Assembly: GCA_910583875.1 (NCBI GenBank) | Contig: CAJTXT010000005.1 | Location: 72,104-136,103 of the forward strand | DNA length: 64,000 nucleotides | Reading direction: 5' to 3' | Origin: an uncultured Vampirovibrio sp. | Lineage (GTDB): Bacteria; Cyanobacteriota; Vampirovibrionia; Gastranaerophilales; Gastranaerophilaceae | Shown here: in pieces, positions 3,635 through 48,892 of the stretch | Numbering within the stretch: position 1 is the stretch's first letter | Layout of the letters: each line of letters begins with the position of its first letter | Position numbers and translations under genes: made by a program | Notes under the pieces: generated by a model | Told to the model about the DNA's origin: nothing | Database searches by the model: none | What the model saw: only the letters and a program-made list of their open reading frames with translations

Positions 3635-3655
3635 TACTCCTCCAATAATTACTTA

Positions 3656-6234: not shown

Positions 6235-6250
6235 ACTAATAGAGGAAATT

Positions 6251-6883: not shown

Positions 6884-6894
6884 AAACAATAATT

Positions 6895-8309: not shown

Positions 8310-8331
8310 TTTATTTACTCCTCAAATTCTA

Positions 8332-9633: not shown

Positions 9634-9754
9634 AAAAATCCCCTGTATAATATAAAATACTTATTAATTTTAGCAAAAAAACATCTTGCATACATAAATT
9701 GTTGCAAAAACTTTAAATAAAAATATTAATAAAAATAATTACCCTAATGGGTAA

Positions 9755-19167: not shown

Positions 19168-19264
19168 AAAGATAAAAGCAGAAAAATTTCATTTTCGGCA
19201 CCTGTGTTTTCGCGATTCCTAAAAACAATGGTGCCAAAAATAAAATTTTTCTGCTTTTATCTTT
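19168..19264 (-). repeat. family-2 repeat
   Basis: Arms match at 33/35 positions. Core 'cacctgtgttttcgcgattcctaaaaacaatggtg'. Ends 4 nt before the stop codon of the 19268 gene. Confidence 0.88.
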
Positions 19265-20642: not shown

Positions 20643-20841
20643 GAAATTATATAGAAATTTACACTAAATCTGCTTAAAAAATAGTAATAATGTCATTCCG
20701 AACTTGTTTGACTACTTTTTCCAAAATCTTTGATTTTGTGAAAAATGTCTGGTTTTCCACGGAATCTTACAATTTGTAAGACCCTGAAACAAGTTCAGGG
20801 TGACAACTTTAGCTATTTTAGTGTAAAGTTGCACATAATTT
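20643..20841. mobile_element. family-1 MITE, full length, carrying a nested 51-nt insertion
   Basis: Ends 'gaaattatatagaaatttacactaaa' and 'tttagtgtaaagttgcacataatttc' are inverted. Two hairpins (ttccg and ccctg variants). Confidence 0.85.
20710..20760 (+). mobile_element. nested 51-nt mini-element (family 3)
   Basis: 'gactactttttccaaaatctttgattttgtgaaaaatgtctggttttccac' splits the hairpin 'ccgaacttgttt|cggaat'. Confidence 0.85.
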
Positions 20842-20892
20842 CAATTTTTCAAGGAATTATAATTTTATATTTATACATTTGGTCATTCCTTT

Positions 20893-22224
20893 CTATCGAC
20901 AAAGCGCATGAGCAAAAAGTTCTGCAACTTTGTGGTTATAAAATCTGCCGTCATCTTTTGCAAAAAGATTTTCCCAATGACTTTCAGGACTTCCATCCAT
21001 TGAATATGAAGGATTTGTCATCATAATATGATGCGTATTTGTATCATACCTAAGCGGGAAAATATCATTAGTCTGCATAAAACTTGGCAGCTTATCACTT
21101 GCATTATAATATGCAAACAGAGCTGTATTTATTCTATGAAGCCTTTGTTCATAACTGATACCGCCCTCGTAGTTATCGTTTTCAATTTCAACACCAGGAG
21201 CGTAAACTCTGTTGTATTTTAATTTTTCAGATAATTCTTTTACAGCAAAAAAATCATCGCCTGTAATAAAATCAGTACCTGCATTTAACCCCATTAAACG
21301 ATAGCGTTCAAAATCATCTGAACTTTTTTCACCGACAAAACTTATCGTAGTTTTTCCGCTTCTTGCTCTAATTTCATTTAAAATATACTGCATCTGAGGA
21401 TATTCAGGCAAATCACCCACACCTGTATAATTTTCACAATCATACCCGCCAATATGTTTAGCTGAATCTATAAACATAGATTCAAAGCCTAAATTCATTA
21501 GTTTTACACTTTCATTAATATAGAGTTCAACATGTTCAGGGTTACACCAGCTAAATGTTTCATCACTACCATTAGGATATGCAACTTTTATCTGATCGGC
21601 AGAAATTACAGTTCTAAACCCTGTTTTTATACCACGAAAATGTGCTAAATCATTAAATGCCTGTATTTGTTCCTCAGGTGTAATTTTATCTGCAATGTTA
21701 TATGAAATAACATTATCACTATAACCCGCATTAAGCTTTATTCCGTAAATAGAGTTTTCTTCAAATGGACCTTTATTATAGCTATCACCAAATATATTGG
21801 GAAAAATCTGAGAAATAATAACGCAATTTGCCCAGCTTTTTGCAGATGGCGGAATAGCAGGAAGAAGTTTAATACAGCTAAGCATGCCGCAGCATGTTCT
21901 ATCAAAATTCATCTGCGCAATTGCGCGATTATTTAATTCTATATAATTTGCTAATCTTCCCCAATTATCACCATAATTCGGGCTCAAAATCTCATCGGGA
22001 AACTTTTCATAGAATATGCCGCCTTCAGATAAAGTCGCAATAGATTCAACAGCTTGCTTAATACTGCGTGAAAGTAATTCAGCTGGAACTATATTTGCTA
22101 CCCATTTTTTTGAAGCATAACATCCAAGCGAATGATAAGTTCTTTCTTTTGTCCAATTATTTTCTTTCAATTGAATATCTTCGCTAAGTGATTTTAATAA
22201 TTTATTTACATAATTTTCTTTCAT
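20893..22224 (-). CDS. hypothetical protein, possibly a GH13-like TIM-barrel glycosidase
   Basis: 443 aa. 'GFESMFIDSAKHI' resembles alpha-amylase region II (GFRxDxxKH) and 'FMQTNDI' resembles region IV. Assignment is weak. Confidence 0.35.
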   Translation of the reverse strand: MKENYVNKLLKSLSEDIQLKENNWTKERTYHSLGCYASKKWVANIVPAELLSRSIKQAVESIATLSEGGIFYEKFPDEILSPNYGDNWGRLANYIELNNRAIAQMNFDRTCCGMLSCIKLLPAIPPSAKSWANCVIISQIFPNIFGDSYNKGPFEENSIYGIKLNAGYSDNVISYNIADKITPEEQIQAFNDLAHFRGIKTGFRTVISADQIKVAYPNGSDETFSWCNPEHVELYINESVKLMNLGFESMFIDSAKHIGGYDCENYTGVGDLPEYPQMQYILNEIRARSGKTTISFVGEKSSDDFERYRLMGLNAGTDFITGDDFFAVKELSEKLKYNRVYAPGVEIENDNYEGGISYEQRLHRINTALFAYYNASDKLPSFMQTNDIFPLRYDTNTHHIMMTNPSYSMDGSPESHWENLFAKDDGRFYNHKVAELFAHALCR

Positions 22225-22361
22225 AATAAATAAATAATTTATCTACCAAAGAAAGATTTCATTAGACTTGTAGATATTTTTTCGGGTAATTAGTTTTTTT
22301 ATAAAAATAATTGGGGTCTTGTAATTTTTTTTTGAGCATATAATAATATAAATAGCTTTAT

Positions 22362-22435
22362 GGCAAGGTAGCTCAGTTGGCGAGAGCGCACGGCTCATAC
22401 CCGTGAGGTCGAGAGTTCGAATCTCTCCCTTGCTA
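22362..22435 (+). tRNA. tRNA with CAT anticodon (Met, or Ile2 if lysidinylated)
   Basis: Cloverleaf folded by hand. Acceptor ggcaagg/ccttgct (G1:U72), D arm gctc/gagc, anticodon stem cacgg/ccgtg with loop ctCATac, T arm gagag-ttcgaat-ctctc, discriminator A. Confidence 0.85.
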
Positions 22436-22467
22436 TTTTTATTTGCTTTATTTTGGGCTAATTCGGG

Positions 22468-22586
22468 ACAGTTTGCGAAATTTGCTCCAAAGTATTGATT
22501 TTATTGAGTTTTAATTTTAAAAAATAGGCAAGAATAAAATTCTTAAACTGGACCAAAACGGACTTTTTTTACCAGTTTAGGAATTC
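22468..22586. promoter_or_regulatory. three copies of the 12-nt motif AATTCnnAAACT / AGTTTnnGAATT
   Basis: 22468-22483 'acagtttgcgaaattt'. 22538-22551 and 22572-22585 form a 14-bp inverted repeat (13/14 match) with a 20-nt spacer. On the minus strand that repeat is followed by a T-rich run, so it may be the operon terminator. Confidence 0.45.
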
Positions 22587-22860
22587 AAGATAGAAAACCC
22601 AGTAAAGAAGATTTTAAATTAGCAGTTGATATTTTAGAAGAAATTTTGAATTACAATGAGCCGTACGAGCAAAAGAAATTCCAAAACAAGCGAAATTGCG
22701 AAATATGCAAAGAGATTATAGAAAAGCGTTATAGATAAAGTTGAAAATTTAATTTTTTTATACCAGTGCTATTTTGAGATTAGAGATATTTATGATAAAT
22801 AAGTATCAAATTGCAAATTAAATTCAATAAGAAGCCTGTTGAACACTTTTTGAACACTAT

Positions 22861-24573
22861 TCATTCGCTAGCTTGTTGATTTGGAAGTTCTGGATTTAAA
22901 TCAATGCCATCAACCCAAGATAATTTTACATTATAACCAAATCCTTTTAAATCCGTAATTATTTTGTCCAAGGCTAACTTACTTATAAAAGTAAGTTTAT
23001 TCTCTCCTTTATCATTAATTATTAAGTATCTAATAGTATAATCTTGATGTGCATTCAAAGAATTGTTTAATCTATGCTTAGGATTATCAAGTTTATCATT
23101 TACACTCGGGACAAAGACTTCTTTCATTGAGGCAAATGCTCTTGCCGAAACATAACCTTGATTAAACAAATGACTCAGATTTGCAGCTTTAGTACCTATT
23201 TTAGAATGAATAAATTCTTTTTTATTAGGTTCGAATATATCACAAATTTCCATTTTATCGCCATCAATGGTAATTTGTTTATTTATTTGATCTAACAATT
23301 CTCCATTCAATTGATTACAAAAGTTTCTATTAAAAATCCTTTCTTTATCAATATGTTTAGTTTCATTTATTTTTTCATTAAGTATTTCTTGAGTAGTATT
23401 ATGTTTTACAGTTTCATCTACTTCTATTGTTTCGCCAATGTCTTCAATATTTTTATTTATTCGTTCATATTTATCAGTAGATAAGCCATACCATACTGCA
23501 TTAGACAGAATATAAACCTGATTATCAAGTTTAAGTTCTCCATATAAACATTTTAATACAGACCATTCTTTGTATTTATTACCTTCTTCATTTAACAAAA
23601 TTATTTTATCTTGATTTAAATTAAGATTTTCTGGAGTTTCTCTTAAGCCAAGATAATCATTTAAAGATAATTTTTCAAATGGTTCAGAACTACGAGAATT
23701 TTCTGCAAGTTTATATTTAATGCTCGAAACAAGAGTTGAATCATAATCAATTTCAGGTTCAAATAAAAAGAAATTTGAGTCTTCCTCTGTAAGTTTATCT
23801 TTTAATATTTCGTTTAATTCTTTCTGTTTTTGGCTCGATAACGGTCTAAGACCTTTAAAAAACTTATTTACAATATCACTATTTATTTGCACATTTTTAT
23901 ATAAATCTAATAATAAACTTAATCTATCATCTAAATAATTCCAACAAGGTATTTCTGATTCTTTAAATCTCATTTTTATATTTAATGGTCCGTATTTGCC
24001 TATAACGGAACTTATTGTTGATGAATCCGCAACTGCATTTAAATGTCTAACTATATCATTATCTTCTAATTCTGCATTAAAAATTTCGTTTGATAGTTCT
24101 TGTGCATTTTGAAATTCTGTATTTCTAGGATTGCTTGATATGTTGCGAGTTCCTGCTCGTCTGATTTTTGCACCTTGATCAATCAAAGCCATTGCTGTAT
24201 ATATCCCAAACGTATCCTCTATTTTGTCTTTTGTTATGTTATGTCTGCCTTGTCCAAAATTTATTGCAAATAGGTATTTTTGATTATTATGTACAATTTG
24301 TTTTATTACAGTAAGTCCTTCGGCTGCGGTATTTGCAAATTTATCTTTAATGGTATCTTTTAAGATTTGCTCATCAAATTCTATTACCCAAGCTGGTTTT
24401 TGTCCTGCGCGTCCATTCTTATATAGAAAATAATTATCATTTTCTTCGCCACCTAAAATAACATTACTTTCTTCATAGTTTTCAATGTAATTATCTCTGC
24501 TATTAAGATTACAGTCTGCTTTTAGTAACATAATGTTTAAGTTAACTGTTTTTACTTTTTCTTCTTCCGACAC
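22861..24573 (-). CDS. 570-aa orphan, possibly a TIGR04141/DUF6119-like 'sporadically distributed' protein
   Basis: GTG start behind GGGAG. N-terminal 'LNIMLLKAD'. C-terminal 'ICDIFEPNKKEFIHSKIGTKAANLSHLFNQG' resembles a nuclease motif. The family name is from memory and was not searched. Confidence 0.35.
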   Translation of the reverse strand: MSEEEKVKTVNLNIMLLKADCNLNSRDNYIENYEESNVILGGEENDNYFLYKNGRAGQKPAWVIEFDEQILKDTIKDKFANTAAEGLTVIKQIVHNNQKYLFAINFGQGRHNITKDKIEDTFGIYTAMALIDQGAKIRRAGTRNISSNPRNTEFQNAQELSNEIFNAELEDNDIVRHLNAVADSSTISSVIGKYGPLNIKMRFKESEIPCWNYLDDRLSLLLDLYKNVQINSDIVNKFFKGLRPLSSQKQKELNEILKDKLTEEDSNFFLFEPEIDYDSTLVSSIKYKLAENSRSSEPFEKLSLNDYLGLRETPENLNLNQDKIILLNEEGNKYKEWSVLKCLYGELKLDNQVYILSNAVWYGLSTDKYERINKNIEDIGETIEVDETVKHNTTQEILNEKINETKHIDKERIFNRNFCNQLNGELLDQINKQITIDGDKMEICDIFEPNKKEFIHSKIGTKAANLSHLFNQGYVSARAFASMKEVFVPSVNDKLDNPKHRLNNSLNAHQDYTIRYLIINDKGENKLTFISKLALDKIITDLKGFGYNVKLSWVDGIDLNPELPNQQASE

Positions 24574-24737
24574 AACTCACTCCCTAAATTTGTAATTGAT
24601 ATTATCATCTTACATATAAAAGTAGAGATTTTTAGAAAAATTAATTATTTTTTAAGGTTTGATAAATCTAACATTTTAGATTATTTACTTTAATTGCATT
24701 TAATGTTGTTATTTTGTCGTATAAACCTTATGTTAAT

Positions 24738-25814
24738 TTATTTTATGTAATCTAAATATTCAAGCAATTTTTTCTGCTCAAGATATTTCATGTAGCTTTC
24801 CATGTATTCGTAATCAGGTTCACCAGTATCAGTAACTGGTAAAGTTAGGATTTCTTTTTTTAATCTAGTATCGCTTCTTTTGTAATTGAAACTATACTTA
24901 CCCCGAACTCTATCTGCAATTGTAGTAATAAACATACCAGAATATTTGTTTAGTTTATTGTTATAACCAACTGTAATATCTGATGTAGCAATAAAATCTT
25001 CGGATTTATATATTGAATACCCCATTGAGCCCTCTCCGTTGCGAATAAATGCAATACAGTTCCCTTTTTGGATTAGATATTCATTTCCAGCCTTTTCTAC
25101 AAAGCAAAGAACTCCATTATTCCTATTAGTTGCACCTAGATAAGGTATTCCTTGTTCATGTACTTGTTCTAAGTGATTCAAGCCTTTACTTTTGCCTGCC
25201 ACTAATACTGGGAATATAGCTTTTATTCTAAAATCACACCAACTTTTATTATCAATAATGTTCTTTTTTAACTTCTTTAATTGAGTTAGCTTAAGAACTT
25301 TGTATTGTTCTTTAAGTTTAATTTCACGCTCTTTTATATATTCTTCCATAAATTCGTAATCAGGCTCACCTTTTGAATTTATAGGTAGCATTATCTTGGC
25401 TCTTTTTAATCTGTCACTATTAAATAAATAGCCATAAGAAGCCTTGTTAAGTGCGGTATTTTCTATAGTTTTACATAAAAATAATGCAACATATTTATTT
25501 AAATCTTTTTTATATAAAAGATTTATAGAAGCACCACTAAATCCTCTACCAACAAAGTTATATTCGTGAAAAAAAGCTTTACCCTTAATCGGATCAATAG
25601 AAATAGCATTTTTTGAACTTATGCATCTTTCATTCGCTTTTACAAAAGATATTAGTCCATTATTCAATGTAGAAGTTGAAATATACGGTATATTTCCATC
25701 AATATAATTTTCTATAGGTTTCCCGTACACATTTTTGATTTCAAACAATTTGCAAATCTGAAAATCTTTCCATTCTCTGTCTTTTAAAGATTTAACCATT
25801 TTTACCCTCATCAA
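24738..25814 (-). CDS. R-M specificity subunit (HsdS-like, BcgI-B-like) with two target-recognition domains
   Basis: 358 aa. Internal duplication: 'PINSKGEPDYEFMEEYIKEREIKLKEQ' and 'PVTDTGEPDYEYMESYMKYLEQKKL' end the two halves. Confidence 0.8.
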   Translation of the reverse strand: MMRVKMVKSLKDREWKDFQICKLFEIKNVYGKPIENYIDGNIPYISTSTLNNGLISFVKANERCISSKNAISIDPIKGKAFFHEYNFVGRGFSGASINLLYKKDLNKYVALFLCKTIENTALNKASYGYLFNSDRLKRAKIMLPINSKGEPDYEFMEEYIKEREIKLKEQYKVLKLTQLKKLKKNIIDNKSWCDFRIKAIFPVLVAGKSKGLNHLEQVHEQGIPYLGATNRNNGVLCFVEKAGNEYLIQKGNCIAFIRNGEGSMGYSIYKSEDFIATSDITVGYNNKLNKYSGMFITTIADRVRGKYSFNYKRSDTRLKKEILTLPVTDTGEPDYEYMESYMKYLEQKKLLEYLDYIK

Positions 25815-27714
25815 ATAAATAGGCTCTGCCTTGTGCTATCATTGAGAACTCAAATGTTAAATAATCAGCAATTGTTTTGTTAAAATCTTTTTCTGTTGGT
25901 ATTTCGTCATTAAAATAATAAAAAGAGTGTAACCATTCGTCAGTTGGTTCAATAGTAGATTTAACACAGAATTTTGTAGGAGCTTCAATTCTATTAAACC
26001 ATACATCTAACAAATGTTGTTTCTTGTCTTTAGCATATTCTGTTTCGACTAAGCCAATGTGTGGAGATACTTTGAAACCATCGTCCTTGAAATCAATAAA
26101 TTTACATTCTTTATCTTTAGGATGTGGTTTATGTGCTGTAAATATAGCTATACATGGATTAGTTCCCACCCCATAAAAAGTATCGCCACTTAAAGTAATT
26201 ACCCCTTCTAATGTGTGGTGCTTTAGAATGTTTTCCTTATAGTTTTGTTCATCTTTTGTTTTGCCAGTTAAAGATGATTGAGGAATAATAACCACAACCT
26301 TACCATCTTCTGCCAAGGAATCTAATAAATGTTCGACAAAACTAATTTCATATAATGACGGATTCGCTTTAGAACCTTGACTATAAGGAGGGTTCATCAT
26401 ACCAACATTGGCACCTTTAAGTTGCAATTCAGCTTCATTGCATCTTAAAAAGTCTTCATCTATTAAATTGCTTTTGCCATCACCACGTATAATCATATTT
26501 GTTGTAGCAATAGTAAACATATATGGTTGAAGTTCTATACCATGAAGCTGATTTTTACGGATACTCTCTTTTTGTGTTTCGGTTTTGGCTTTCTTTAACA
26601 TATTATGCATTGCAGCAATTAAGAATCCCGCCGTACCACAGCAAGGGTCAAAAACAATATCATCAGGTTTTAAGTCAACAAGATCACAAAATAATTGAGT
26701 TATATGTTTAGGTGTTAAAATTATTCCTAATGTTTGCCCATCACCTCCTGAATAACTCATAAATTCACCATAAAATCTTCCAAGATAATCTTCTGCAGTT
26801 TTTGTATATTTTATGGTTTTGTAAATATTATCATAAATTTGTTCAGCATAGTATTTTAAAGGAGTTTTACCTAAAATTGGGTTAATTTCATTTAAAATCT
26901 TTGTATCTTTAATAACTGCAAATTGAGTTAATAGTTTATCTTTTTTTACAGTAGGTGAAACTTTAGAACGTTGTAAATTTTTATCAATGGCATTATAAAT
27001 TTTATTTCCATCTGTGTCTATATCATCCCCTATAAGTTGTTCAAGATTAAATGACCCTTTTTCAATTTCTCGAAGAGCAAGCAAGATTCCAGAAACAACA
27101 AGAGGCTTCTGTGTATCTTGCAAATTACCATAATTTCTTAAATCCTCATGTAAATTTTTGGCGAATTTAAGAATTTCGGTTGTTTCTTTTTGCAAATCAG
27201 TGTTTTCGCCGAGAATTTCTCTTGTATAATATTCGTCGATATTTTCTTCATTAAATATATAAAATGATTCGACATCTGGCATTATCTTGCAATACTCACG
27301 TTCATTTATAAATAGAGGTGTAATTTTGTGATGTTTTTCATTTCCAGAAACACCAAATGCAATGATCTTTTTATAATTAGTATTATTTATAAGATGTTTT
27401 CCATAAAAGTAAGCACCATTTACTGCGTATTGTCCGACAGATTTAGTATCTGTACTTATTAAATTCTTGTCATCATATTTTACATGTTTTGATAGATCTG
27501 ATTTATCTTCAATGACAAGTATAAAATCTTTCACAACTCCAACATACTCCGGAAAACCAACATTTCCAGTACCTTTCTTTGATGCTGTTTTTAATGCTTC
27601 GTCAATTTCTTTTATTGAACAGCCTTGTGGGTCTAAACAGATTTTTGCTTCTTTTAATAAATCATAAACCCATAAATCAGTTTTGACTTCCTTTTTTGCC
27701 ATATCATATACCAT
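25792..27714 (-). CDS. fused endonuclease and N6-adenine methyltransferase subunit (BcgI-A-like, Type IIB)
   Basis: 640 aa. N-terminal PD-(D/E)xK-like 'GFPEY-x12-VIEDK'. SAM motif 'VFDPCCGTAGFL'. Catalytic 'MNPPYSQ'. Overlaps the S-like gene by 23 nt. Confidence 0.7.
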   Translation of the reverse strand: MVYDMAKKEVKTDLWVYDLLKEAKICLDPQGCSIKEIDEALKTASKKGTGNVGFPEYVGVVKDFILVIEDKSDLSKHVKYDDKNLISTDTKSVGQYAVNGAYFYGKHLINNTNYKKIIAFGVSGNEKHHKITPLFINEREYCKIMPDVESFYIFNEENIDEYYTREILGENTDLQKETTEILKFAKNLHEDLRNYGNLQDTQKPLVVSGILLALREIEKGSFNLEQLIGDDIDTDGNKIYNAIDKNLQRSKVSPTVKKDKLLTQFAVIKDTKILNEINPILGKTPLKYYAEQIYDNIYKTIKYTKTAEDYLGRFYGEFMSYSGGDGQTLGIILTPKHITQLFCDLVDLKPDDIVFDPCCGTAGFLIAAMHNMLKKAKTETQKESIRKNQLHGIELQPYMFTIATTNMIIRGDGKSNLIDEDFLRCNEAELQLKGANVGMMNPPYSQGSKANPSLYEISFVEHLLDSLAEDGKVVVIIPQSSLTGKTKDEQNYKENILKHHTLEGVITLSGDTFYGVGTNPCIAIFTAHKPHPKDKECKFIDFKDDGFKVSPHIGLVETEYAKDKKQHLLDVWFNRIEAPTKFCVKSTIEPTDEWLHSFYYFNDEIPTEKDFNKTIADYLTFEFSMIAQGRAYLFDEGKNG

Positions 27715-29014
27715 CCTTTAAAATTTCATCAAACTTGCTTGCCATGTACAATGGAATATTATAAAGCCCATTGTTTATCTCAAAATTCGCAAGTGAAGTT
27801 CTTATGCTTATCTCGGGTTCAAATTTTTCTCGATAAACCTTAAGACTTTTTGCTTGTAAATTTGTATTAGCTTTCACTTCAACAGGAATAACATACCCGT
27901 CAGTTTGAATAATAAAATCAATCTCAGCATTTCCAGACTTACTTATCCAATAAGCAATTTCCATATCTTCAATAGTTTTTAATTGTTGCAGTACGTATTG
28001 TTCTGCTAAAGCACCGTTAAATTCTGTAAAAATTTTATCTCCTTCAATCAAAGTTCTTGCTGGAAGCTTACTTAATGCAGATAATAAACCTACGTCTAAA
28101 ATAAATAATTTAAATGCTTTGGTGTCTTCATATGCTTTTAATGGTAAAGCAGGTTTTGTAATACGGTTTATTTTATAAACCAGTCCACAATTAATAAGCC
28201 AAGATAAAGCTTCCTCAAACTCATCTGCCCTTGCTCCGGATTTTATTTTTTTATAAACAAACTTCTTACTTTCTTGAGTTAATTGACTTGGAATTGACTC
28301 CCATAGTAAATCAAGTTTCAACTTGCCAGTAGAAGATATATGTTTTGAGAAATCTCTTGTATATGCATCTAAAATATTTTCTTGAACCTTACGAACTTTT
28401 TGAAAATCATTTGTTTCAATAAATGTACTAACCACTTCTGGCATTCCGCCAACGTAATAATATTTTTTTAACCATTCAATATACTTTTCTTTAAAAACTT
28501 TTATATTAGGAGATTTAGGACTTTTTAGTAATTCTATAAAATTACTTTCACCAATGGCATCTAAAAATTCTAAAAATGATAGAGGATATAAATCAAGAAA
28601 ATCTACTTTTCCAACCGGAAAAGAAACATTCTCATGAATAGCAACTCCCAATAAACTGCCAGCTGCAATAATATTATATTCTGGAGTGTTTTCATAAAAA
28701 TATTTAAGAGCCGTTAAAGCTTTTGGGCATTCTTGAATTTCATCAAGTATTATTAGTGTTTTTTGGGCATCAATTTTAGAATGGGTTAACTCCAAACCTT
28801 CAATAATTCTTTTTGTATCAAAATCTATTGAAAACAGATCACACATTAACTTGTCTAATTCAAAGTTTATATAAATAACCTTTTTGTATTCAGTTTTGCC
28901 AAACTCTTTCATTAACCAAGTTTTGCCAACTTGACGAGCCCCTCTGATTATCAATGGTTTTCGTTTTGAATTATTCTTCCATTCTATGAGCTTATTTATT
29001 GCATATCGTTTCAT
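27704..29014 (-). CDS. AAA+ ATPase (AAA_14/DUF4143 type) with a C-terminal PD-(D/E)xK-like motif
   Basis: Likely start 'MKRYAINKLIEW' (the ORF track extends to 29065). Walker A 'GARQVGKTW', Walker B 'LIILDEIQ'. C-terminal 'AEIDFIIQTDGYVIPVEVKA'. Confidence 0.75.
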   Translation of the reverse strand: MKRYAINKLIEWKNNSKRKPLIIRGARQVGKTWLMKEFGKTEYKKVIYINFELDKLMCDLFSIDFDTKRIIEGLELTHSKIDAQKTLIILDEIQECPKALTALKYFYENTPEYNIIAAGSLLGVAIHENVSFPVGKVDFLDLYPLSFLEFLDAIGESNFIELLKSPKSPNIKVFKEKYIEWLKKYYYVGGMPEVVSTFIETNDFQKVRKVQENILDAYTRDFSKHISSTGKLKLDLLWESIPSQLTQESKKFVYKKIKSGARADEFEEALSWLINCGLVYKINRITKPALPLKAYEDTKAFKLFILDVGLLSALSKLPARTLIEGDKIFTEFNGALAEQYVLQQLKTIEDMEIAYWISKSGNAEIDFIIQTDGYVIPVEVKANTNLQAKSLKVYREKFEPEISIRTSLANFEINNGLYNIPLYMASKFDEILKDGI

Positions 29015-29203
29015 ATAATCTCTCTCAGTATATAACTTAACAAAAATTAATAATAAATAACTCATCCGAAAATACGATTTTACATTTTTTTAAACGACTT
29101 TTGAGAAATTTATAGCATTATATCAAATGACTTTGAGTGGTAATATTACATTTTTATTAACTACTTTTTCTAAAAATAAAGTTACTTAAAAATAACGTTG
29201 CCC

Positions 29204-29251
29204 GAAATTCTCAAACTATCTGTGAAAAATTCCTAAACTGTTTGTGAATTT
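29204..29251. promoter_or_regulatory. three more copies of the AATTCnnAAACT motif, including a 23-nt near-palindrome
   Basis: 'gaaattctcaaactatc' (29204-29220) and 'aattcctaaac-t-gtttgtgaatt' (29228-29250). Located between the WYL gene stop and the ATPase start. Confidence 0.45.
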
Positions 29252-29292
29252 ACACAATTGAAAGGTTATAGATAATTTAAAATGGTTTAAAT

Positions 29293-30255
29293 TTAATAAT
29301 TTTTTAAATTACTTTCCATATATTGTTTATACTCAGCTTGCAGTGATTTTGGTGCAATAATTTTGCAGCCGCTGCCCCATTTGAATACATGCCAAATGAT
29401 TTCTAAGCTTCCGCTTGCTCTAAAAGTTACAGTATAACTACCGTCCGTATTATATTTACCCCTTTGTGTCGGATGGAAATTGAATTGACTCGCTTCCTGT
29501 GCTAGTTCAGGTGAAAACAAAAGTTCAACATCAAGAACTTCACCGTGATACACACCAAAAGACTGGTTTGTATATTTTTGCAAGTTAAAATCACCTTTAT
29601 CAAATGTTTTATCGGTAAGTTTTAATCCTTCAAATTTATGCAACAAATAGTTATAAATTCCATTACCTTTGGCTTTTTCCCTTGCAACAAGATAAATCTT
29701 TTCTCCGTAAATCATTCCAAGAGGTTCAATTAATCGAATTTTATCGTTATAAATTCCATTAACCATTTTTGAATGTTGAACAGCTTCCCGAATAATTTCC
29801 AGCGTTTCTATACTAATCTTATATTGCGGCATTTGGCGGACTGCATAACCTTCTGTTTGCATATACAGTTCAATATTTGTTTCAAGAGAATTTGCATTTT
29901 TACGGTTAAATGTCTTAATTTTTTCAACTGTTTTGGCTAATTCTGCTTTCATTTCTTTATTCGTTGTTCTGCGTTGGCATTGCTCAATATTTGCTATCTC
30001 TTTAGGAGAAAAAGAAATCAAATTTGAAATTGAATAGTTTATAAATCCCCAATGTTTTTGAGAATCGTTTGTTTCAATTTCATCAACAGACGGAAAAATA
30101 CAAGTTAAACTATCTCTCATTCGTTCTGCAGTCCTTCGTGAAACATTATATCGTTCTGCAATTTCAGAAATCGTTACCCCTTGAATTTTTGATGACATAA
30201 AAATTGCCAAATCTAAAATATCTGAAATTCGTGAATATCTTGGTTTATCTTGCAT
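29293..30255 (-). CDS. HTH plus WYL-domain transcriptional regulator (BrxR/CapW-like architecture)
   Basis: 320 aa. wHTH 'VTISEIAERYNVSRRTAERMRDSL'. WYL-like 'YNDKIRLIEPLGMIYGEKIYLVAREKAKGNGIYNYLLHKFEGLKL'. Confidence 0.7.
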   Translation of the reverse strand: MQDKPRYSRISDILDLAIFMSSKIQGVTISEIAERYNVSRRTAERMRDSLTCIFPSVDEIETNDSQKHWGFINYSISNLISFSPKEIANIEQCQRRTTNKEMKAELAKTVEKIKTFNRKNANSLETNIELYMQTEGYAVRQMPQYKISIETLEIIREAVQHSKMVNGIYNDKIRLIEPLGMIYGEKIYLVAREKAKGNGIYNYLLHKFEGLKLTDKTFDKGDFNLQKYTNQSFGVYHGEVLDVELLFSPELAQEASQFNFHPTQRGKYNTDGSYTVTFRASGSLEIIWHVFKWGSGCKIIAPKSLQAEYKQYMESNLKNY

Positions 30256-30344
30256 AATTATTCCCCTTGAAATTATTATAGCACAATATGTCCGTATTTG
30301 TCGCAGATATACGTTAAAATGATAACAAAATAAGGAGATAATAT

Positions 30345-30932
30345 ATGGATAAAATTAAATTATTAATCAAAAATAGAGAACAAGATACATTCGCAATACA
30401 TTATGCCTGTGAATGTTTTTATAATGGCGGTGCTATTGCACCTTCTATTTGCTCAATCAGTATTGTAAATATGAGAACAAACAATCTGCATACATTTGCA
30501 TTGCATAATTATATTTTACAAGGGAAATCATTGATTGATAGTGAAAAACAATTATTGTTAGATTTTGTTGATTTTTACAAATCATTGAACAATCCAATAT
30601 TTATTCACTGGGCAATGGATAGTTTGCAATACGGATTTAAAGCTATTTTTGCCAGAGCTGAAAACTTTGGAATATATGATTTTGATTTATCAAAAATGCA
30701 AGATATAAATCTAAAAAATTATATTGATTTATCACTTATAAGAAGTTTAGAAATGAATAATTGCAAGAGAATTTCTGTTCTAAACGGCAAAGATGAGGCA
30801 ATAAGTTTTGATAAACGTGACTACAATTTAGTCAAATTATCGACAGAAGGTAAAGTTTTAGGAATATTAGAATTATTTGAAAAATATCTCAATAATGATT
30901 TAGTTGAATTAGATGATGATGTAATCTACTAA
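30345..30932 (+). CDS. hypothetical protein, cassette gene 1
   Basis: 195 aa, SD site AAGGAGA. No confident domain. An RNase-H-like strand/helix pattern is only a guess. Confidence 0.5.
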   Translation: MDKIKLLIKNREQDTFAIHYACECFYNGGAIAPSICSISIVNMRTNNLHTFALHNYILQGKSLIDSEKQLLLDFVDFYKSLNNPIFIHWAMDSLQYGFKAIFARAENFGIYDFDLSKMQDINLKNYIDLSLIRSLEMNNCKRISVLNGKDEAISFDKRDYNLVKLSTEGKVLGILELFEKYLNNDLVELDDDVIY

Positions 30933-30940
30933 AGGTTAAA

Positions 30941-31861
30941 ATGACATATCTGAATATAATAAATAAAATTAATAAAGAATACGGAGTTGAACTCAATGAA
31001 GACGATATCAAAAAAATAGTTTTTGGTATACAAAATAAAATGTGTTATTTTTTAACTAATCCTAATGATTTGAGTAATTCAAGAATTGCAGTAATTGTTA
31101 AATATGGACAAAATCTTATTAAACTTATCACTTATCATGATGGTTCGATAGTTTGTGTTTTACCATGTAATCATTCACAAAATGCGGATATGTTAAATAT
31201 TCCTGATATTAAAAAAGAAATTGAGTTATTAAATAAAATTGAACTAAAGAATTTAAGTCATATTTGTGCATATTGCAATAAGGCTTTGAAACCGGAAGAA
31301 AAAACAATAGATCATATCATACCAAAATCAGCTAAAGGGAAAAATATTGTTGATAATTATGTTATTTGTTGCTCAGAATGTAATACAAAAAAAGCAAATT
31401 ATGATATTAATTCTTATTTAGAAGCTAATGATAAAATTGCTTATTGTTTTGATAATTATTTACAAATGATTGATAATCAAAGAAAAAACAAGTTTTATTC
31501 AAAATTAATTAAACAACATATCAAAGAACATATTTTCTCAAAGGCAAAAAAATACCAATTATATCGAAATGAGCGAATTAATCAAATACAAGATATAGAA
31601 TATAAAATAAAAGGTAGTTCTATTTCTTTTAAAATCAATAAAACACAAGCAAAAATTTTAGATTTTTATCTTGAAAATAAAGATTTTACTGAATATAAAT
31701 TATTGGCAAAACAATTAAAAATTAGTAAAAGCGAATTACAAACACATATTACTCATATCAATTGTTTAACAGGAATTTTTATACTTAAAGAAGTGAGTAA
31801 AAATGGTATCAGATTAAATGGGTTATATAAAGATAAATTAGAAATTATTAAACAAGATTAA
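30941..31861 (+). CDS. HNH endonuclease-domain protein with a probable C-terminal HTH, cassette gene 2
   Basis: 'CAYCNKALKPEEKTIDHIIPKSAKGKNIVDNYVICCSECNTKKAN'. C-terminal 'AKILDFYLENKDFTEYKLLAKQLKISKSELQTHI'. Confidence 0.75.
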   Translation: MTYLNIINKINKEYGVELNEDDIKKIVFGIQNKMCYFLTNPNDLSNSRIAVIVKYGQNLIKLITYHDGSIVCVLPCNHSQNADMLNIPDIKKEIELLNKIELKNLSHICAYCNKALKPEEKTIDHIIPKSAKGKNIVDNYVICCSECNTKKANYDINSYLEANDKIAYCFDNYLQMIDNQRKNKFYSKLIKQHIKEHIFSKAKKYQLYRNERINQIQDIEYKIKGSSISFKINKTQAKILDFYLENKDFTEYKLLAKQLKISKSELQTHITHINCLTGIFILKEVSKNGIRLNGLYKDKLEIIKQD

Positions 31862-31904
31862 ACAATTTTACATTAAAAACGTTATATAATTCAAAGGAGT
31901 TTAA

Positions 31905-33083
31905 ATGAAAAAGATAAGTTTATTGATGTTACTTTTAATCTTTAGTACAATCTCTGCGTGTGCCTATTTTCAAGTTAATGAATTTAAACTGGTACAAAAT
32001 AATAATACAAAAATCTGTCAAGCATTTGAAGATGGTTATGTTTGTGGAAATGAAGAACCTGTTTATTATGAAAATTTTAAAGAAACTTTTTTGTCACTAA
32101 AAATTAATTATTGGAATATGGACGGGGAAAAATGTTTACGTTTAAAGCAAGGATATAAATGTTCTAATGAAACTCCTGTTTTTTGGTTTAAAGGCAAAAA
32201 AGGAATATTAATAAAAGATAATGAAGGTAATGAGCAAATATGTTCATTGAAACGCGATGGCAGTTATGAATGTCCTCAAAATAATGAATTGTATAGTATG
32301 CTTTTACCTTATGGAAATTGGGAATTTATAAGAGAAGAAGGCTTTTGGAAGGTTAAATACACACAAGGTTGTATAGGCTACAAAAACGGTTATATTTGCC
32401 CTAGTGAAGAACCAAGATTTATCAAAGATTTTAGAAGCAGTTTTGATTTTTCCATCTCAGAACAAATGTCAAATGATGTGAAAGTAAAAAATGGAATACC
32501 TCTAGATAAAAATTGTTATGAATTGAGTTTGGGTTATTATTGTACTGGAGAAATGCCTGTAATAAATAAGGTATACAAAATTGATGAACATCGCGGTATT
32601 TTTGTATCTGATAAAAACAACCCAGGTAATAAAAAAATATGTAAACATTTTACGTTTGATGAGTACATTGATAGCGGATATAAATGCAAAGGTGAAGAAC
32701 CGGTTATAACCAAAAGACCTACCACAATAAAATATAACGGCAAATCAAAGTTTCATGGTAAAGTTGAAGAAATGCGCAAAGGTATAATTGCAAATTATGG
32801 GTTAGTTACTTGTAATCAATATAAAGACGGTTATGTTTATTGTCCCGGTGAAGAAAATAATCCTAAAAAGTATGCTATGACTTATGATTTAACGCCGGAA
32901 GAATTTAGGAAAGCAGGAAAGGAAGCCGAACGCAACAAAACGGCAACGGAACGGTTAAAAGAGAGCCTCAATAAAGGTCGTATTTATATGCGTGATAAGA
33001 ATGGAAAAAGAACCGAATATAAAATTAATCCTTATACAATCGATAGGAATTCTTTGGAACTGATACCGCGTTGGTCGCATTAA
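31905..33083 (+). CDS. lipoprotein with six Cys-containing 'C..x..GY.C..E.PV' repeats, cassette gene 3
   Basis: Lipobox 'STISAC'. Repeats EDGYVCGNEEPV, KQGYKCSNETPV, KNGYICPSEEPR, SLGYYCTGEMPV, DSGYKCKGEEPV, KDGYVYCPGEEN. Confidence 0.7.
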   Translation: MKKISLLMLLLIFSTISACAYFQVNEFKLVQNNNTKICQAFEDGYVCGNEEPVYYENFKETFLSLKINYWNMDGEKCLRLKQGYKCSNETPVFWFKGKKGILIKDNEGNEQICSLKRDGSYECPQNNELYSMLLPYGNWEFIREEGFWKVKYTQGCIGYKNGYICPSEEPRFIKDFRSSFDFSISEQMSNDVKVKNGIPLDKNCYELSLGYYCTGEMPVINKVYKIDEHRGIFVSDKNNPGNKKICKHFTFDEYIDSGYKCKGEEPVITKRPTTIKYNGKSKFHGKVEEMRKGIIANYGLVTCNQYKDGYVYCPGEENNPKKYAMTYDLTPEEFRKAGKEAERNKTATERLKESLNKGRIYMRDKNGKRTEYKINPYTIDRNSLELIPRWSH

Positions 33084-33116
33084 TGAATTGTATATGATTA
33101 ATTAAAAGGAATTTAA

Positions 33117-33506
33117 ATGAAAAAGAATCGTCTATCTAAAGCAAAAAATCAAACTTATCATTTCAAAAAAAGATGTGATGAAAGATTAGGTGTACAAATT
33201 GATAGAAAAGCAATTCAAAGACGAATTAATGAACAAAAATTTGACGAGCACTTTTATTTTTTAAATAAACAATCTAATAGGGTTTCCAGATATCGTTACA
33301 GATTTCAAGATAAATGGTATATCATTCCTTACGACAGAAATACTCATAAAGTTATAACAATATTTGAAGACAATAAACAAGATATTTTTACAGAAACTAA
33401 AACTGATATTATTACTAAAAACACTAAAAAGAATCCATTCAACTGGTTTCAAAAACTTATTCAATGTTTTAAGGATATAAGTACATCAATTCATAAACAA
33501 TGTTAA
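33117..33506 (+). CDS. small basic protein, possibly a DUF4258/BECR-fold toxin, cassette gene 4
   Basis: 129 aa. 'YHFKKRCDERLGV' follows an H-x3-R-x2-ER pattern, then beta-rich 'WYIIPYDRNTHKVITIF'. Confidence 0.35.
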   Translation: MKKNRLSKAKNQTYHFKKRCDERLGVQIDRKAIQRRINEQKFDEHFYFLNKQSNRVSRYRYRFQDKWYIIPYDRNTHKVITIFEDNKQDIFTETKTDIITKNTKKNPFNWFQKLIQCFKDISTSIHKQC

Positions 33507-33691
33507 TAGTATTATTTTGAAATAAATAAAAACAGCAATAATACAGGGTTAATGAAATCTGAAGGTACAACAATTATTCTGCACAAGTATAAAGATATAT
33601 GCATATTAAACAATGAAAAAATAATATGTAAAGGAATCAATAGGGTTGACGTATATAAATATGAAATTAATTAAAATTATGAGGTTTTAAA

Positions 33692-34885
33692 ATGAAAAAA
33701 GATGATGAATGGCAAGCAAAATATTTTTATACATCTACAGAACTTAACAATTTTATTGAACCGTTGAAATCAAAATTGCTTGGTAAATCTATAGATAAGA
33801 TAATGATTACTGGACATATTTATACAAGTTGCGGATATGATGACAAAGAAAATTATTGTGTTAAATATTCCTGTGATGAAAAATGGGTTATAGAAGACAA
33901 CAACGTTGAAAAACAAATCCAATCATTACCAACTCATAAAGTTTCTCTTTCTTTAGATGATCCATTGATTTTATGTTTTGGCAATATTCATTTTGAAATA
34001 AATTACTGTGAATTTAGTAATGCACAAATTGGCATAAATACATTAAATTCTATGAGTAATGCTGATTGGCAAGATGTTAGTGATTATTTTGTCAAGAACA
34101 TTATTGGAAAGAAATTATTAGATATAAAAATAAATCAAACTTGTATACCAAATAAATACACTTCTCACTACCGAAAAAATGGTGAAAAAATGTATGATGA
34201 AATAGTTTTTGTATTTGAAAATGGCTATCAATTAGAAATATCTTCGGATATAGATTATATGTCTTTAGCTGAAAGAATTATATGGCAAGAACAGCAAGAT
34301 TTAGCACAAAGAGATTGGGATTGTTATTATGATTCAAAGCAATATTTGGATGATAATGAAAAAACATTCAAAGAGCTAATTGCTGAATCAATTCCGATTA
34401 ATGGTAATAATATGCGAATAACCGCTAATGATGAATATTCCACTGGATTTCTTGATTACTATTTTGAAATAAATAATAATGGTATTATTAGCAAATGTTA
34501 TTATGGGTTTGCTATTAACAATATGAATTTTCTTTGGAATTTCGTAGAAGCTATGGTAATGTCAAAAAATGATTGTTATTTGTGTTGTGAAGAAGAAGGG
34601 CCAGAAACATATTTTTATATACAAAATCTAGATGATGATAAAATTAGATTTATACATATTAGTAATAGAATACAAGACGAAGGTTTAGTGACTGAAGACT
34701 ACAAAGTTCGTCAAGATTTTATAACAAGCAAATATAATTTTATAAAACAATTTTATACTTGCCTAATACAACCGATTAGACATTTTAATAAAACTAATAT
34801 GAGCAAGGTATGCTTGGATGAATACAATGAATTTTATAAAAATTCAATAATTGTAAAAAAATATTTGGAACTTTATAATTGTTAA
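33692..34885 (+). CDS. hypothetical protein, cassette gene 5
   Basis: 397 aa, SD site GAGG. No recognisable motif. Confidence 0.5.
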   Translation: MKKDDEWQAKYFYTSTELNNFIEPLKSKLLGKSIDKIMITGHIYTSCGYDDKENYCVKYSCDEKWVIEDNNVEKQIQSLPTHKVSLSLDDPLILCFGNIHFEINYCEFSNAQIGINTLNSMSNADWQDVSDYFVKNIIGKKLLDIKINQTCIPNKYTSHYRKNGEKMYDEIVFVFENGYQLEISSDIDYMSLAERIIWQEQQDLAQRDWDCYYDSKQYLDDNEKTFKELIAESIPINGNNMRITANDEYSTGFLDYYFEINNNGIISKCYYGFAINNMNFLWNFVEAMVMSKNDCYLCCEEEGPETYFYIQNLDDDKIRFIHISNRIQDEGLVTEDYKVRQDFITSKYNFIKQFYTCLIQPIRHFNKTNMSKVCLDEYNEFYKNSIIVKKYLELYNC

Positions 34886-34915: not shown

Positions 34916-35908
34916 CTAAAGTATTTTTTTACATTTTTCCAAGATTTTAGGAAGAAGTGAATTCCACGCTGCTTCTTTTGGATGTAAATTATCTTGCATT
35001 AAATATTTTTCGGAATTTAAGTCTTCTTGCGTTAAATCATCGGTGCTTATTACCGTAAAATTATTCTTTTCAAGCTTTTCTTTTAAAATATCCTCAAAGT
35101 CTATCTTATTATTATCATATAATATGACAATAAAATTAATTTTTTTATTCCATCTTTTTTCTAAACAATTCCGTGTTTCAACTAAATATTTAACAGCTAA
35201 ATCAGTCAATTTATCAGCATTCTTTGGATTTTTTATATAACTATCAACATATTTGCAATTTATAGCTCTTACAATATATGATGATTTAATTAAATTAAGA
35301 AATATATTATTATAATTATCCTTTACTAATTTATTATTTTTAATTTTATATCTTAAATAGAAATTCCCGCCGATTACATCAAAATCACTAAAAATCGACA
35401 TTCTTAGATAATGGTCATTTATCATTACATAAAAAATGGTATCTGATATTGGAACATCTTTATAAAAACTTGAATTTTCTTCTGAAACCTGATAATACAT
35501 ATGCTGTAAACTAGCTCCTGGTATGGCTCTGTTATATACTGGTCTTTTTAATTTATGAGCTAATTTATAACTAAAATTTTGATTGTAATTCAGATATTGA
35601 CCATGAGCAAAAGAATCACCAAAAATTATTATAGGTTTCCCTTTTTTATATTCTAATCCATCAGGCTTTCTACCATTAATTATATTGTCTTTACCGTTAA
35701 AATACCCATCCAAATTTATAAATGTTATATGAGGATTTTTTAAGTAATACCTATATGGAGGGATAAATGTAGATAACGGATGCTCTTCCAAATATTTTTT
35801 AGGGTTTAATGCAATTCTATAAGTTAAATAATCCGTAATAAAAAATAAACATATTAATAAAATTATATTAAAACTAACTAATAATATTATTTTTAAACTT
35901 TTGTTCAT
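34916..35908 (-). CDS. membrane-anchored SGNH/GDSL-family hydrolase
   Basis: N-terminal TM segment. Block I 'IIIFGDSFAHG'. Block V 'DNLHP'. Confidence 0.6.
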   Translation of the reverse strand: MNKSLKIILLVSFNIILLICLFFITDYLTYRIALNPKKYLEEHPLSTFIPPYRYYLKNPHITFINLDGYFNGKDNIINGRKPDGLEYKKGKPIIIFGDSFAHGQYLNYNQNFSYKLAHKLKRPVYNRAIPGASLQHMYYQVSEENSSFYKDVPISDTIFYVMINDHYLRMSIFSDFDVIGGNFYLRYKIKNNKLVKDNYNNIFLNLIKSSYIVRAINCKYVDSYIKNPKNADKLTDLAVKYLVETRNCLEKRWNKKINFIVILYDNNKIDFEDILKEKLEKNNFTVISTDDLTQEDLNSEKYLMQDNLHPKEAAWNSLLPKILEKCKKIL

Positions 35909-35920
35909 AAATCCTCATAT

Positions 35921-36718
35921 TCACATATTAGCTAATATTATTAAACAATAATATGCTGCAGGAGCTGAAAAAATAAATGCATCAACTCTATCTAAAATAC
36001 CGCCATATTCAAAGAAAAAAGAACCGCTATGTTTTATACCTAAATCTCTTTTTATTAAGGATATTGATAAATCACCAATTTGTGAAAATATAGAGATTGT
36101 TACACCTAATATAATTGTTTTTATAAATGCTAATTCTAAAAAATACATAAGTGGTAAACAAGCAATGCAACTAAATATTATGTTCGATATAGAACCTGCA
36201 ACAGTTTTATTAGGACTTATTTGCGGGCATAAAAGTTTATTTTTAAATAATGGTCCAATTCTTGATGCACTATAATCACCTAACAGAACAGCACTAAAAT
36301 ATATGATTATAAACGAAAATTTATAAACAGAAAAAAAATAAAAAAGCTTAACTATATATAAAGTACAAAATATAAATAAAAATCCCATTATAGTTGCAAA
36401 AGTAGTAACTATATATGGCTTTTTATTTTTAATGATTGTTATAAAGAAAGATAGCATAATACCTATAACTGTTAACGGAGTAACATATTCGTTATAACTA
36501 TATATATACAGATAAGAACATACTATACCAATAAATTCCGGAAGAATTTTATGAATATGAATATCTTTTACTCTAAACATACTCCTATATTCTTTTAAAG
36601 CAAAAATAATGAAGAAAATAGAAACAAGAAATAATGCAAGTTTAGATATTGCAATAGATAAGAGTATTCCAAATAAAATAATAAAGCCTGTTATATAGTG
36701 TAATCTTTTTTGTTTCAT
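35921..36718 (-). CDS. cdsA: phosphatidate cytidylyltransferase
   Basis: 'SPNKTVAGSISN' and 'GDLSISLIKRDLGIKHSGSFFFEYGGILDRVDA'. Start set at the internal Met; the ORF track extends to 36757. Confidence 0.8.
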   Translation of the reverse strand: MKQKRLHYITGFIILFGILLSIAISKLALFLVSIFFIIFALKEYRSMFRVKDIHIHKILPEFIGIVCSYLYIYSYNEYVTPLTVIGIMLSFFITIIKNKKPYIVTTFATIMGFLFIFCTLYIVKLFYFFSVYKFSFIIIYFSAVLLGDYSASRIGPLFKNKLLCPQISPNKTVAGSISNIIFSCIACLPLMYFLELAFIKTIILGVTISIFSQIGDLSISLIKRDLGIKHSGSFFFEYGGILDRVDAFIFSAPAAYYCLIILANM

Positions 36719-36776
36719 AAAAATCTCTTTTACCCAAAATATAATAACAAAATGCAAAAAAAAAGGCTATTAAATC

Positions 36777-37883: not shown

Positions 37884-37904
37884 ACTTTTATATTATAATT
37901 ATAA

Positions 37905-48865: not shown

Positions 48866-48892
48866 AAAGAAAAAACAGAAAATATATACAAT

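Follow-up and report, generated by a model that had tools for sequence, protein, structure and literature searches.

A tRNA-linked defence island without an integrase in a Gastranaerophilales genome, explained in part as a probable decayed Mu/Tn7-like DDE transposon

Gene content of the island

The DNA analysed here is a window of 64,000 nucleotides from a single contig of a gut metagenome-assembled genome (MAG) of the order Gastranaerophilales (Melainabacteria), a genome of 29% GC that is labelled G000. Compared genomes, compared loci and contigs carry G-, L- and C-numbers, respectively, and coordinates without a prefix are positions in the window. The subject of the analysis is an island of defence-type and orphan genes that lies directly 3' of a tRNA-Met(CAT) gene, in which no integrase is found and whose first 6.8 kb (22461-29254) lies between the ends of a DDE transposon.

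The attachment-site gene, tRNA-Met(CAT), occupies 22361-22436 on the forward strand according to both ARAGORN and Rfam; an earlier reading of this DNA, made without database searches and referred to below as the sequence-only reading, had recognized the tRNA and placed its end at 22435. It forms a pair with the adjoining 443-amino-acid (aa) gene (20893-22224) that is kept across the genus, and a host spacer (22437-22460) separates it from the truncated transposon end. The four genes that follow are all on the reverse strand. The first (22861-24573) encodes a 570-aa cargo protein of the DUF6119/TIGR04141 'sporadically distributed' family (phrog_18579). The second and third are the cargo genes of a putative BcgI-like restriction-modification (R-M) system: a specificity (S) subunit of BcgIB type (24738-25814; PADLOC Specificity_II, 1.6e-37) with two stretches of Methylase_S, and a 640-aa type IIB/IIG RM subunit (25792-27714; PADLOC REase_MTase_IIG, 1.3e-170) that matches this model over residues 7-635 and also matches N6_Mtase. 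The two genes overlap, and their arrangement agrees with the layout of BcgI-like type IIB systems, in which a fused endonuclease-methylase is predicted to act with a separate specificity subunit carrying two target recognition domains. The fourth gene (27704-29065) encodes PDC-S01, an ATPase with AAA_14 and DUF4143 domains and a weak PD-(D/E)XK_4 match, which is either cargo or a semi-core gene of the element. Literature on DUF6119/TIGR04141 and DUF4143 yielded nothing functional.

Beyond the distal transposon end, a reverse-strand gene (29293-30255) encodes a protein with the HTH-WYL-WCX architecture of BrxR/CapW-like regulators; WCX is matched at 2.6e-10, WYL at 9.6e-4 (below the Pfam cut-off), the HTH weakly, and the PADLOC WYL model at 6.5e-23. 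It is divergent from the adjoining forward-strand operon of five genes (30345-34885: o195, a 306-aa HNH protein, o392, o129 and o397), for which it is the predicted regulator. The HNH protein alone among the five has a Pfam domain; o195 belongs to phrog_8766, o392 is a reported lipoprotein, and the family of o397 is rare (25 hits among 5.8 billion proteins). The description of these genes as defence or orphan genes in the sequence-only reading holds for the whole list.

Nucleotide composition does not set the island apart. Windows between 22 and 30 kb fall in the 27th-75th percentile of genome-wide tetranucleotide distance and their GC content is also ordinary, so that the earlier proposal to compare the island with its flanks does not separate it from the left flank and marks 34-40 kb as atypical instead. 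GC and tetranucleotide distance were accordingly set aside as island markers at 22-30 kb.

An intact transposon and a probable relative of it in the window

A complete relative of the first part of the island is present in another genus, beside tRNA-His (G092:C42:3786-15625), and spans 11.84 kb. Its termini read 5'-TGT...ACA-3' and it is flanked by a 5-bp direct duplication, AAGGG. From the tRNA side, the element consists of the terminus 5'-TGTATTTTTTGAGGTAGTTTAGGAATTCGGGAC..., six copies of a 12-nt box (AATTCyyAAACT), and genes for a GNAT protein, a transposase, an ATPase and two small open reading frames (ORFs), orf225 and orf143; beyond orf143 follow two cargo genes, S, RM, PDC-S01, two tandem boxes and the terminus ...TTTACA-3'. 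The ends of the family thus comprise several repeats of about 20 bp and TGT/ACA termini, with the 5-bp duplication seen in G092 only. The 665-aa transposase matches Mu-transpos_C at 1.3e-14 (54 bits) and rve weakly, and matches the PHROGs family phrog_310, 'transposase', over its full length at 1.4e-102; a candidate DDE triad was picked by eye in the transposase alignment, and a PDB sequence search with the protein returned insignificant hits only. The 238-aa ATPase matches AAA_22 and TniB (PF05621, 4.8e-8; 33 bits against a cut-off of 22.4). The same order is seen across the copies, in which transposases of 655-686 aa are followed by an AAA_22/TniB ATPase of 226-262 aa and two small ORFs, and truncated ORFs near other boxes, including ones of 202 aa and 254 aa without Pfam hits, are pieces of the transposase. 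Pfam and PHROGs are silent on orf225 and orf143, and orf225 shares only an N-terminal, winged helix-turn-helix (wHTH)-like segment of about 55 residues with the third genes of related copies, which are integrase-SAM-like. No phage structural or lysis genes were seen in the G092 element, of which the cargo ORFs of 438 and 293 aa were not scanned.

Both ends of this transposon are preserved in the window. The transposase-side, tRNA-proximal end (22461-22588, forward strand) has box cores at about 22470 (-), 22538 (+) and 22574 (-) and is 96.9% identical to the end of the G092 element over 129 nt; its outermost 35 bp are deleted. These 35 bases are kept at the same tRNA on a contig of another strain (L111), including the 5'-TGT terminus, which there lies 37 bp past the tRNA. 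Adjoining the end is a remnant of orf143 with the DNA downstream of it (22579-22856, forward strand), which is 86% identical in nucleotide sequence to G092 (279 nt) and 90% identical to the element in G018. The ORF fragment at 22547-22738 (...LGIQDRKPSKEDFKLAVDILEEIL...CEICKEIIEKRYR*) corresponds in alignment to the final 53 residues of the orf143 protein of G092 (143 aa), the peptide being about 85% identical to its C-terminus; the sequence-only reading had taken this start-less ORF as a decayed piece of whatever delivered the island, and so it proves to be. The distal end (29066-29254, reverse strand) carries two tandem boxes 22 bp apart (29206 and 29228) and the terminus ...TTTACA at 29254, and the homology of the window to both G092 and G018 stops exactly at this position. 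From RM through PDC-S01 to the distal terminus, the window is 94.1% identical to G092 over 2,623 nt, and the RM proteins are 95-98% identical in amino acid sequence. The S subunits share 39% identity, indicating that specificity has diverged. Compared with G092, the window copy lacks about 4.6 kb, namely the inner boxes, GNAT, transposase, ATPase, orf225 and the 5' part of orf143. The genome has no rve hit and no tblastn match to the family transposase, which implies that the window copy is now fixed.

These observations suggest, with a probability of roughly 0.78, that 22461-29254 arrived on a transposon of the Mu/Tn7 superfamily of DDE elements that homes to the 3' side of tRNA genes and has since lost its transposition genes, and that the island as a whole is a mosaic. 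Its lack of an integrase would then follow from the delivery of at least the first 6.8 kb by a transposon. In the mechanism proposed, a DDE transposon family of the Gastranaerophilaceae would insert 37-49 bp downstream of tRNA genes with its transposase-side end toward the tRNA; an intact copy would encode a MuA/TnsB-like transposase, a TniB/TnsC/MuB-like AAA+ ATPase, two small ORFs (about 225 and 143 aa) and variable defence cargo, with the PDC-S01 ATPase reading inward from the far end; and the window copy would have kept both ends and its cargo while losing the transposase, the ATPase, orf225, the 5' part of orf143 and the outermost 35 bp of one end.

Several results weigh against this interpretation. 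A target-site duplication is absent around the window copy, whose outside flanks are TTTTA and CAATT, as well as around the G018 copy, so the window element is not demonstrable as a simple insertion. TniQ (PF06527) has no hit near any element in eight element-bearing genomes, although a remote homologue may be present, and no TnsA domain was seen; the elements therefore fall outside the usual Tn7-like definition of TnsB and TnsC with TnsA or TniQ (Hsieh & Peters, PMC9881144). A single-sequence AlphaFold model of orf225 reached a predicted local distance difference test score (pLDDT) of 37 and was unusable. A search for transposon ends across 29.3-41 kb gave noise only, and the transposon origin of 29293-34885, discussed below, consequently rests on gene homology in one other element family. 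Finally, the compared genomes are all MAGs, in which mobile DNA may be mis-binned.

Copies beside other tRNA genes

The tandem-box pattern was sought in 301 genomes of the order, with the reversed pattern as a control, and was found in 20 of them; the control pattern was found in none. Copies of the element lie beside tRNA-Met in the window, L111, G011, G012 and G107, beside tRNA-His in G092, beside tRNA-Ser(CGA) in G018, beside tRNA-Gln in G136 and on contig C3 of G000, and beside tRNA-Ser(TGA) at L257; the box arrangement of the window recurs at the same tRNA in G011. The transposase-side end lies 37-49 bp past the tRNA 3' end in the Met, Ser and His copies, the Gln and Ser(TGA) copies are also tRNA-adjacent, and this end faces the tRNA in every copy in which both ends or the transposition genes are mappable. 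In G018, the element begins 40 bp past tRNA-Ser(CGA) and carries decayed transposase fragments and a different R-M system. As near-identical elements lie beside at least four tRNA species, the target selector is not specific to one tRNA.

PDC-S01 is 97% identical in amino acid sequence between the window and G018, 95% with G092, 94% with G136 and 91-92% with G082 and G011, whereas the core proteins of the window and G018 are only 74% (the 443-aa protein) and 70% (M16 peptidase) identical, suggesting that PDC-S01 has spread horizontally. In five copies, PDC-S01 (homologues at L225, L234, L235, L248, L249 and L253) is also the gene that comes first from the distal end inward, it directly follows the transposition module in G011:C11, and homologues 83-85% identical lie beside tRNA-Ala and tRNA-Leu (L122 and L124). 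It is possible that PDC-S01 belongs to the semi-core of the element and is not simply free cargo.

A second copy without a transposase is present in the genome under study (G000:C3:92203-99374), beside tRNA-Gln(TTG) (C3:99429-99501). Its distal tandem boxes lie at 92218-92251; the proximal end (...AATAATCAAACTG x2 ...AAAATACA) is divergent and stops about 54 bp from the tRNA, and the cargo includes a 1025-aa SIR2-like/pAgo-like protein, two DNA methylases and a restriction-enzyme-like protein, among others.

Internally deleted mini-elements were found at L226, L233, L240 and L241 (G011:C6, G065:C4, G107:C16 and G151:C13) and at contig ends in G109, G259, G086 and G127. They have identical tandem boxes (AATTCTCAAACCGGCTGTGATAATTTCTCAAACT) and a truncated transposase ORF of 202 aa, which is 100% identical in the four loci with sequence, spanning three genera (g1, g14 and g24), and assemblies often break at them. 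The mini-elements reflect either a very recent spread of a non-autonomous transposon or mobile DNA shared among bins. In another genus, a defence island at L244 (G092:C33:15000-29500) contains a truncated transposase fragment and boxes beside a homologue of the window's DUF6119 protein (30% identical), along with a 1013-aa SF1 helicase-REase (MTES_1575/DUF559) and a trio of TerB-N/TerB-C protein, BrxC/D-like ATPase and DEAD helicase.

The distribution of the boxes also bears on a reading in which no vehicle is involved. The interval from tRNA-Met to prs and the M16 peptidase gene would be a hotspot at which homologous recombination in the conserved flanking sequences swaps cassettes, and the boxes would be operators of a regulator such as the WYL protein. 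In keeping with this, both G000 copies have their tandem boxes some 140-215 bp ahead of the first gene, and RM and S genes are 27-39% identical between the otherwise homologous cassettes of the window, G011, G018 and G092, a divergence that suggests internal cassette exchange. The genes past the tRNA, moreover, are different in nearly every sister species and synteny is broken or inverted in several relatives, as detailed below. However, the homology to elements at the unrelated tRNA-His, tRNA-Ser and tRNA-Gln loci breaks off exactly at TGT/ACA termini, and G092 shows a 5-bp duplication; an operon for a MuA/TnsB-like transposase has the boxes at its outer ends; and truncated copies that are 100% identical recur in four genera at sites where assemblies break, as expected for mobile repeats. 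Recombination probably reshuffles the cargo, yet it leaves the ends unexplained, and exchange without a vehicle is very improbable as an account of the island. The boxes had at first been taken for operators of the WYL regulator or of a 'defence regulon', a guess that was demoted on account of their position at the TGT/ACA termini of the transposase operon.

A second module at 29293-34885

The WYL gene and two genes of the five-gene operon, o195 and o397, have their closest counterparts in a related transposon at L256/L257, whose TnsB is 49% identical. Its gene order is TnsB, TnsC, a small integrase-SAM-like protein, a 136-aa ORF, o195, WYL, two variable genes and o397 (as homologues), and its TnsC has the same AAA_22 and TniB domains as the ATPase of G092. 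The window proteins are 85% (WYL), 62% (o195) and 54% (o397) identical in amino acid sequence to these homologues. Since the homologues of WYL, o195 and o397 sit behind TnsB-TnsC beside tRNA-Ser, 29293-34885 is probably an end-less remnant of a second transposon copy, apparently its cargo-proximal part, a view that draws on gene homology. This segment would represent an older copy that was pushed away from the tRNA by the newer insertion and whose transposition module and ends were then deleted. The absence of a target-site duplication around the window element would fit a deletion that started at the distal end of the newer element and extended into the older copy. The sequence-only reading had treated the region as one island unit; a mosaic of at least two modules takes its place.

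The tRNA-Met site in sister species

The slot past tRNA-Met was compared across 17 loci of sister species, up to 9.8 kb from the tRNA. The genes differ in almost every species and the ORF families are nearly all singletons, so that genes are present or absent among relatives at the same tRNA, and the sequence-only claim of an accessory, variable region directly 3' of it is borne out. Five integrase-family ORFs lie in tRNA-Met-adjacent slots (G014, G003/G042, G041 and L038). At the same tRNA-Met in G041, a complete integrase element of 12.3 kb (L118; G041:C6:2012-14407) has produced a hybrid tRNA: its 3' half comes from the element and is different at several positions, and the original half, 43 nt long, has been displaced to the far end as attR. 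It encodes an integrase, Toprim, DUF3987, a resolvase, zinc-ribbon proteins and Abi_2, and looks like a satellite or an integrative mobilisable element. In G003, a matching half-tRNA lies on a second contig, and the contig that holds the integrase also has a homologue of o195 (33% identical), about 11 kb from the tRNA. With integrase elements and their att repeats in the sister species, tRNA-Met is a double hotspot.

This tRNA-Met is accordingly a working attB in the genus, and the elements in G041 and G003 favour the alternative put forward in the sequence-only reading, that of a classic integrase island or satellite in the 3' half of tRNA-Met from which the integrase and attR were later deleted; an element of this kind could be the ancestor of part of 29.3-34.9 kb. 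In the window itself, nothing is seen that an integrase element would leave. Pfam scans found no recombinase among the island ORFs, the window's contig has no tyrosine recombinase (each of the four G000 matches to PF00589 is on another contig), and tblastx found no integrase pseudogene in the 424-bp spacer. A 24-mer from the tRNA 3' end, allowing up to 3 mismatches, matches the tRNA itself only; a 55-nt att-type half-tRNA aligned locally over 22.4-46 kb scores no better than shuffled sequence; and 34.8-35.0 kb, where a partial copy of the tRNA end had been thought worth seeking, is likewise negative. The absence of both an integrase and a repeat of the tRNA 3' end had been correctly noted from the sequence. 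The DNA nearest the tRNA, moreover, is a transposon end with a remnant of the transposition operon and not an int-proximal attL, and the nearest homologues of WYL, o195 and o397 lie in a TnsB-TnsC element. For 22461-29254, where both DDE-transposon ends are still present, an integrase-type vehicle is refuted, and for the island as a whole it is unlikely.

Two further observations concern recombinases in these genomes. In the region 3091-10842 of G021:C5 (L022), an exact duplication covers an acetyltransferase gene together with the first approximately 150 codons for a GT-C-like membrane protein. Between the two copies lies an insert of 5.5 kb, which contains an integrase-SAM-like ORF of 147 aa, a pair resembling AbiEi/AbiEii and a nuclease-like ORF of 471 aa; it is either an insertion that duplicated a long target or an artefact of the assembly. 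The genus is also rich in ORFs of 180-220 aa whose only match is to the catalytic domain of tyrosine recombinases (PF00589, E about 1e-24), apart from the Xer-like and full-length integrases (for example, G000:C1:239401-239829 and C2:99995-100435).

On the right-hand side, synteny resumes at prs (PRPP synthetase; 39580-40620, forward strand), the first conserved gene, followed by the M16 peptidase (40981), PilZ, histidine kinase and response regulator genes. prs directly abuts tRNA-Met in two sister species (L036 and L048), an empty-site-like state, and in other relatives the M16 block lies 9-12 kb from the tRNA or is inverted. A state resembling the empty site that the sequence-only reading had proposed to look for in relatives is thus seen, with prs and not the SGNH/cdsA cluster next to the tRNA. 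Look-ups of exact proteins within the species returned only the same assembly or 1.6-kb contigs broken in the tRNA.

The intervening stretch (34916-39512) encodes an SGNH hydrolase, a CdsA-like paralogue, an rSAM-SPASM protein and a 535-aa polytopic membrane protein, and had been regarded as the core right flank. It has the most atypical composition in the window (97th-98th percentile, GC 0.23) and is non-syntenic in relatives. The SGNH protein has 11 paralogues in G000 and reaches 61% identity at best with a protein of a relative; the CdsA-like gene, a paralogue of the housekeeping cdsA that is confined to the genus, has homologues 47-70% identical elsewhere in the genomes of relatives. The stretch is a genus-specific, fast-evolving envelope cluster rather than conserved core, and is not clearly of mobile-element origin. 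Homologues of the CdsA-like gene (35921-36757) contain one or two in-frame TAA codons in 7 of 21 genus genomes (G003, G006, G014, G016, G019, G020 and G021), with frames that are otherwise full length; these may be pseudogenes that arose repeatedly, errors made in sequencing AT-rich DNA, or something else.

Dispersed intergenic repeats of about 50-120 nt, 80-96% identical, occur at 20782-20892, 18958-19264, 12226-12346, 48871-48960 and 61641-61829. They flank several genes, including the 443-aa gene on both sides, and are points at which Logan and ENA contigs of this species are broken.

Relation to known transposons

Tn7-like elements that target tRNA genes are known from Cyanobacteria, in which TnsD-type selectors direct insertion 29-33 bp past the tRNA (PMC9881144, PMC10293859, PMC11837452). 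The elements described here resemble this TnsAB-fusion clade (for example, the homing mode of McCAST, PmcCAST and CyCAST) in their oriented insertion tens of bp past a tRNA (37-49 here), in the combination of a TnsB-type DDE transposase with an AAA+ regulator, and in their ends, with repeats of about 20 bp, TGT/ACA termini and a 5-bp duplication; their host lineage is, in addition, sister to Cyanobacteria. Unlike the cyanobacterial elements, they have no TnsA or TnsAB fusion, no Pfam-detectable TniQ/TnsD and no CRISPR module, and the transposase matches the Mu-phage type over its full length (phrog_310).

Type V-K CRISPR-associated transposons (CASTs; TnsB-TnsC-TniQ-Cas12k) share with these elements a TnsA-less core, a small TnsC-like ATPase (238 aa here), insertion downstream of a tRNA and a relatedness to the cyanobacterial lineage, but no Cas12k, CRISPR array, known guide-RNA family (Rfam detects tRNA only) or TniQ hit was found here. 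Phage Mu (MuA and MuB) is alike in the succession of a MuA-like transposase and an AAA+ ATPase, in end repeats of about 22 bp and in the 5-bp duplication, and differs in that the 11.8-kb element has no structural genes and that insertion is specific in site and orientation rather than near-random.

A further parallel concerns target selection. In Tn6022, the selector TnsF is an inactivated tyrosine recombinase (Faure et al. 2023, PMC10293859). The third gene of L248 and L256/L257 likewise encodes the N-terminal SAM-like/core-binding domains of an integrase without the catalytic domain, which suggests, from domain matches, a putative recombinase-derived DNA reader in the selector position. In contrast to TnsF, these proteins are fragment-sized (125-265 aa) and have no detected TniQ partner.

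Tn7-like transposons typically carry defence genes as cargo (Benler et al. 2021, PMC8649781), and islands are known to be built in tandem at att sites (PMC11014353). Similarly, the elements here carry R-M, PDC-S01, Gabija-like, SIR2-pAgo-like and 'Beta protein' genes, a cargo that may serve in defence against phage, and successive elements appear to accumulate and decay at one site. The transposase clade, the hosts and the type of att site differ from those of the published elements. Given that behaviour and core enzymes are shared and the defining selector genes are lacking, the family is best described as a variant of the tRNA-targeting Tn7/Mu elements and not as a member.

A more speculative extension, offered as a tentative and somewhat doubtful possibility, is that the family constitutes an undescribed branch of Mu/Tn7 elements with targeting free of TniQ, TnsA and CRISPR, with copies that can be mobilised in trans, with PDC-S01 as a semi-core gene, and with a role as the main shuttle of defence cassettes between genera. 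A small wHTH protein, which in some copies would stem from the part of a tyrosine integrase that binds DNA, would recognize something that many tRNA genes have in common (for example, the T-arm) and direct MuA/TnsB-TnsC insertion about 40 bp downstream, and the G000 copies at tRNA-Met and tRNA-Gln would become mobilisable when an autonomous copy enters the cell.

Implications

The decayed DDE transposon proposed for 22461-29254 would explain a tRNA-linked island without an integrase, as its short ends are easily missed. It adds a group lacking TnsA, TniQ and CRISPR to the Mu/Tn7 elements that home to tRNA genes, in a non-photosynthetic sister lineage of Cyanobacteria, and thereby bears on the evolution of Tn7-type target selection and on the ancestry of type V-K CASTs. 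Near-identical defence cargo, comprising R-M and PDC-S01, moves between gut genera, and two sets of genes emerge as candidate transposon-borne defence modules: PDC-S01 with the BcgI-like R-M system and DUF6119, and the WYL-controlled five-gene operon. With its exact ends and a candidate machinery of four genes, the element may also represent a compact system for site-specific insertion.

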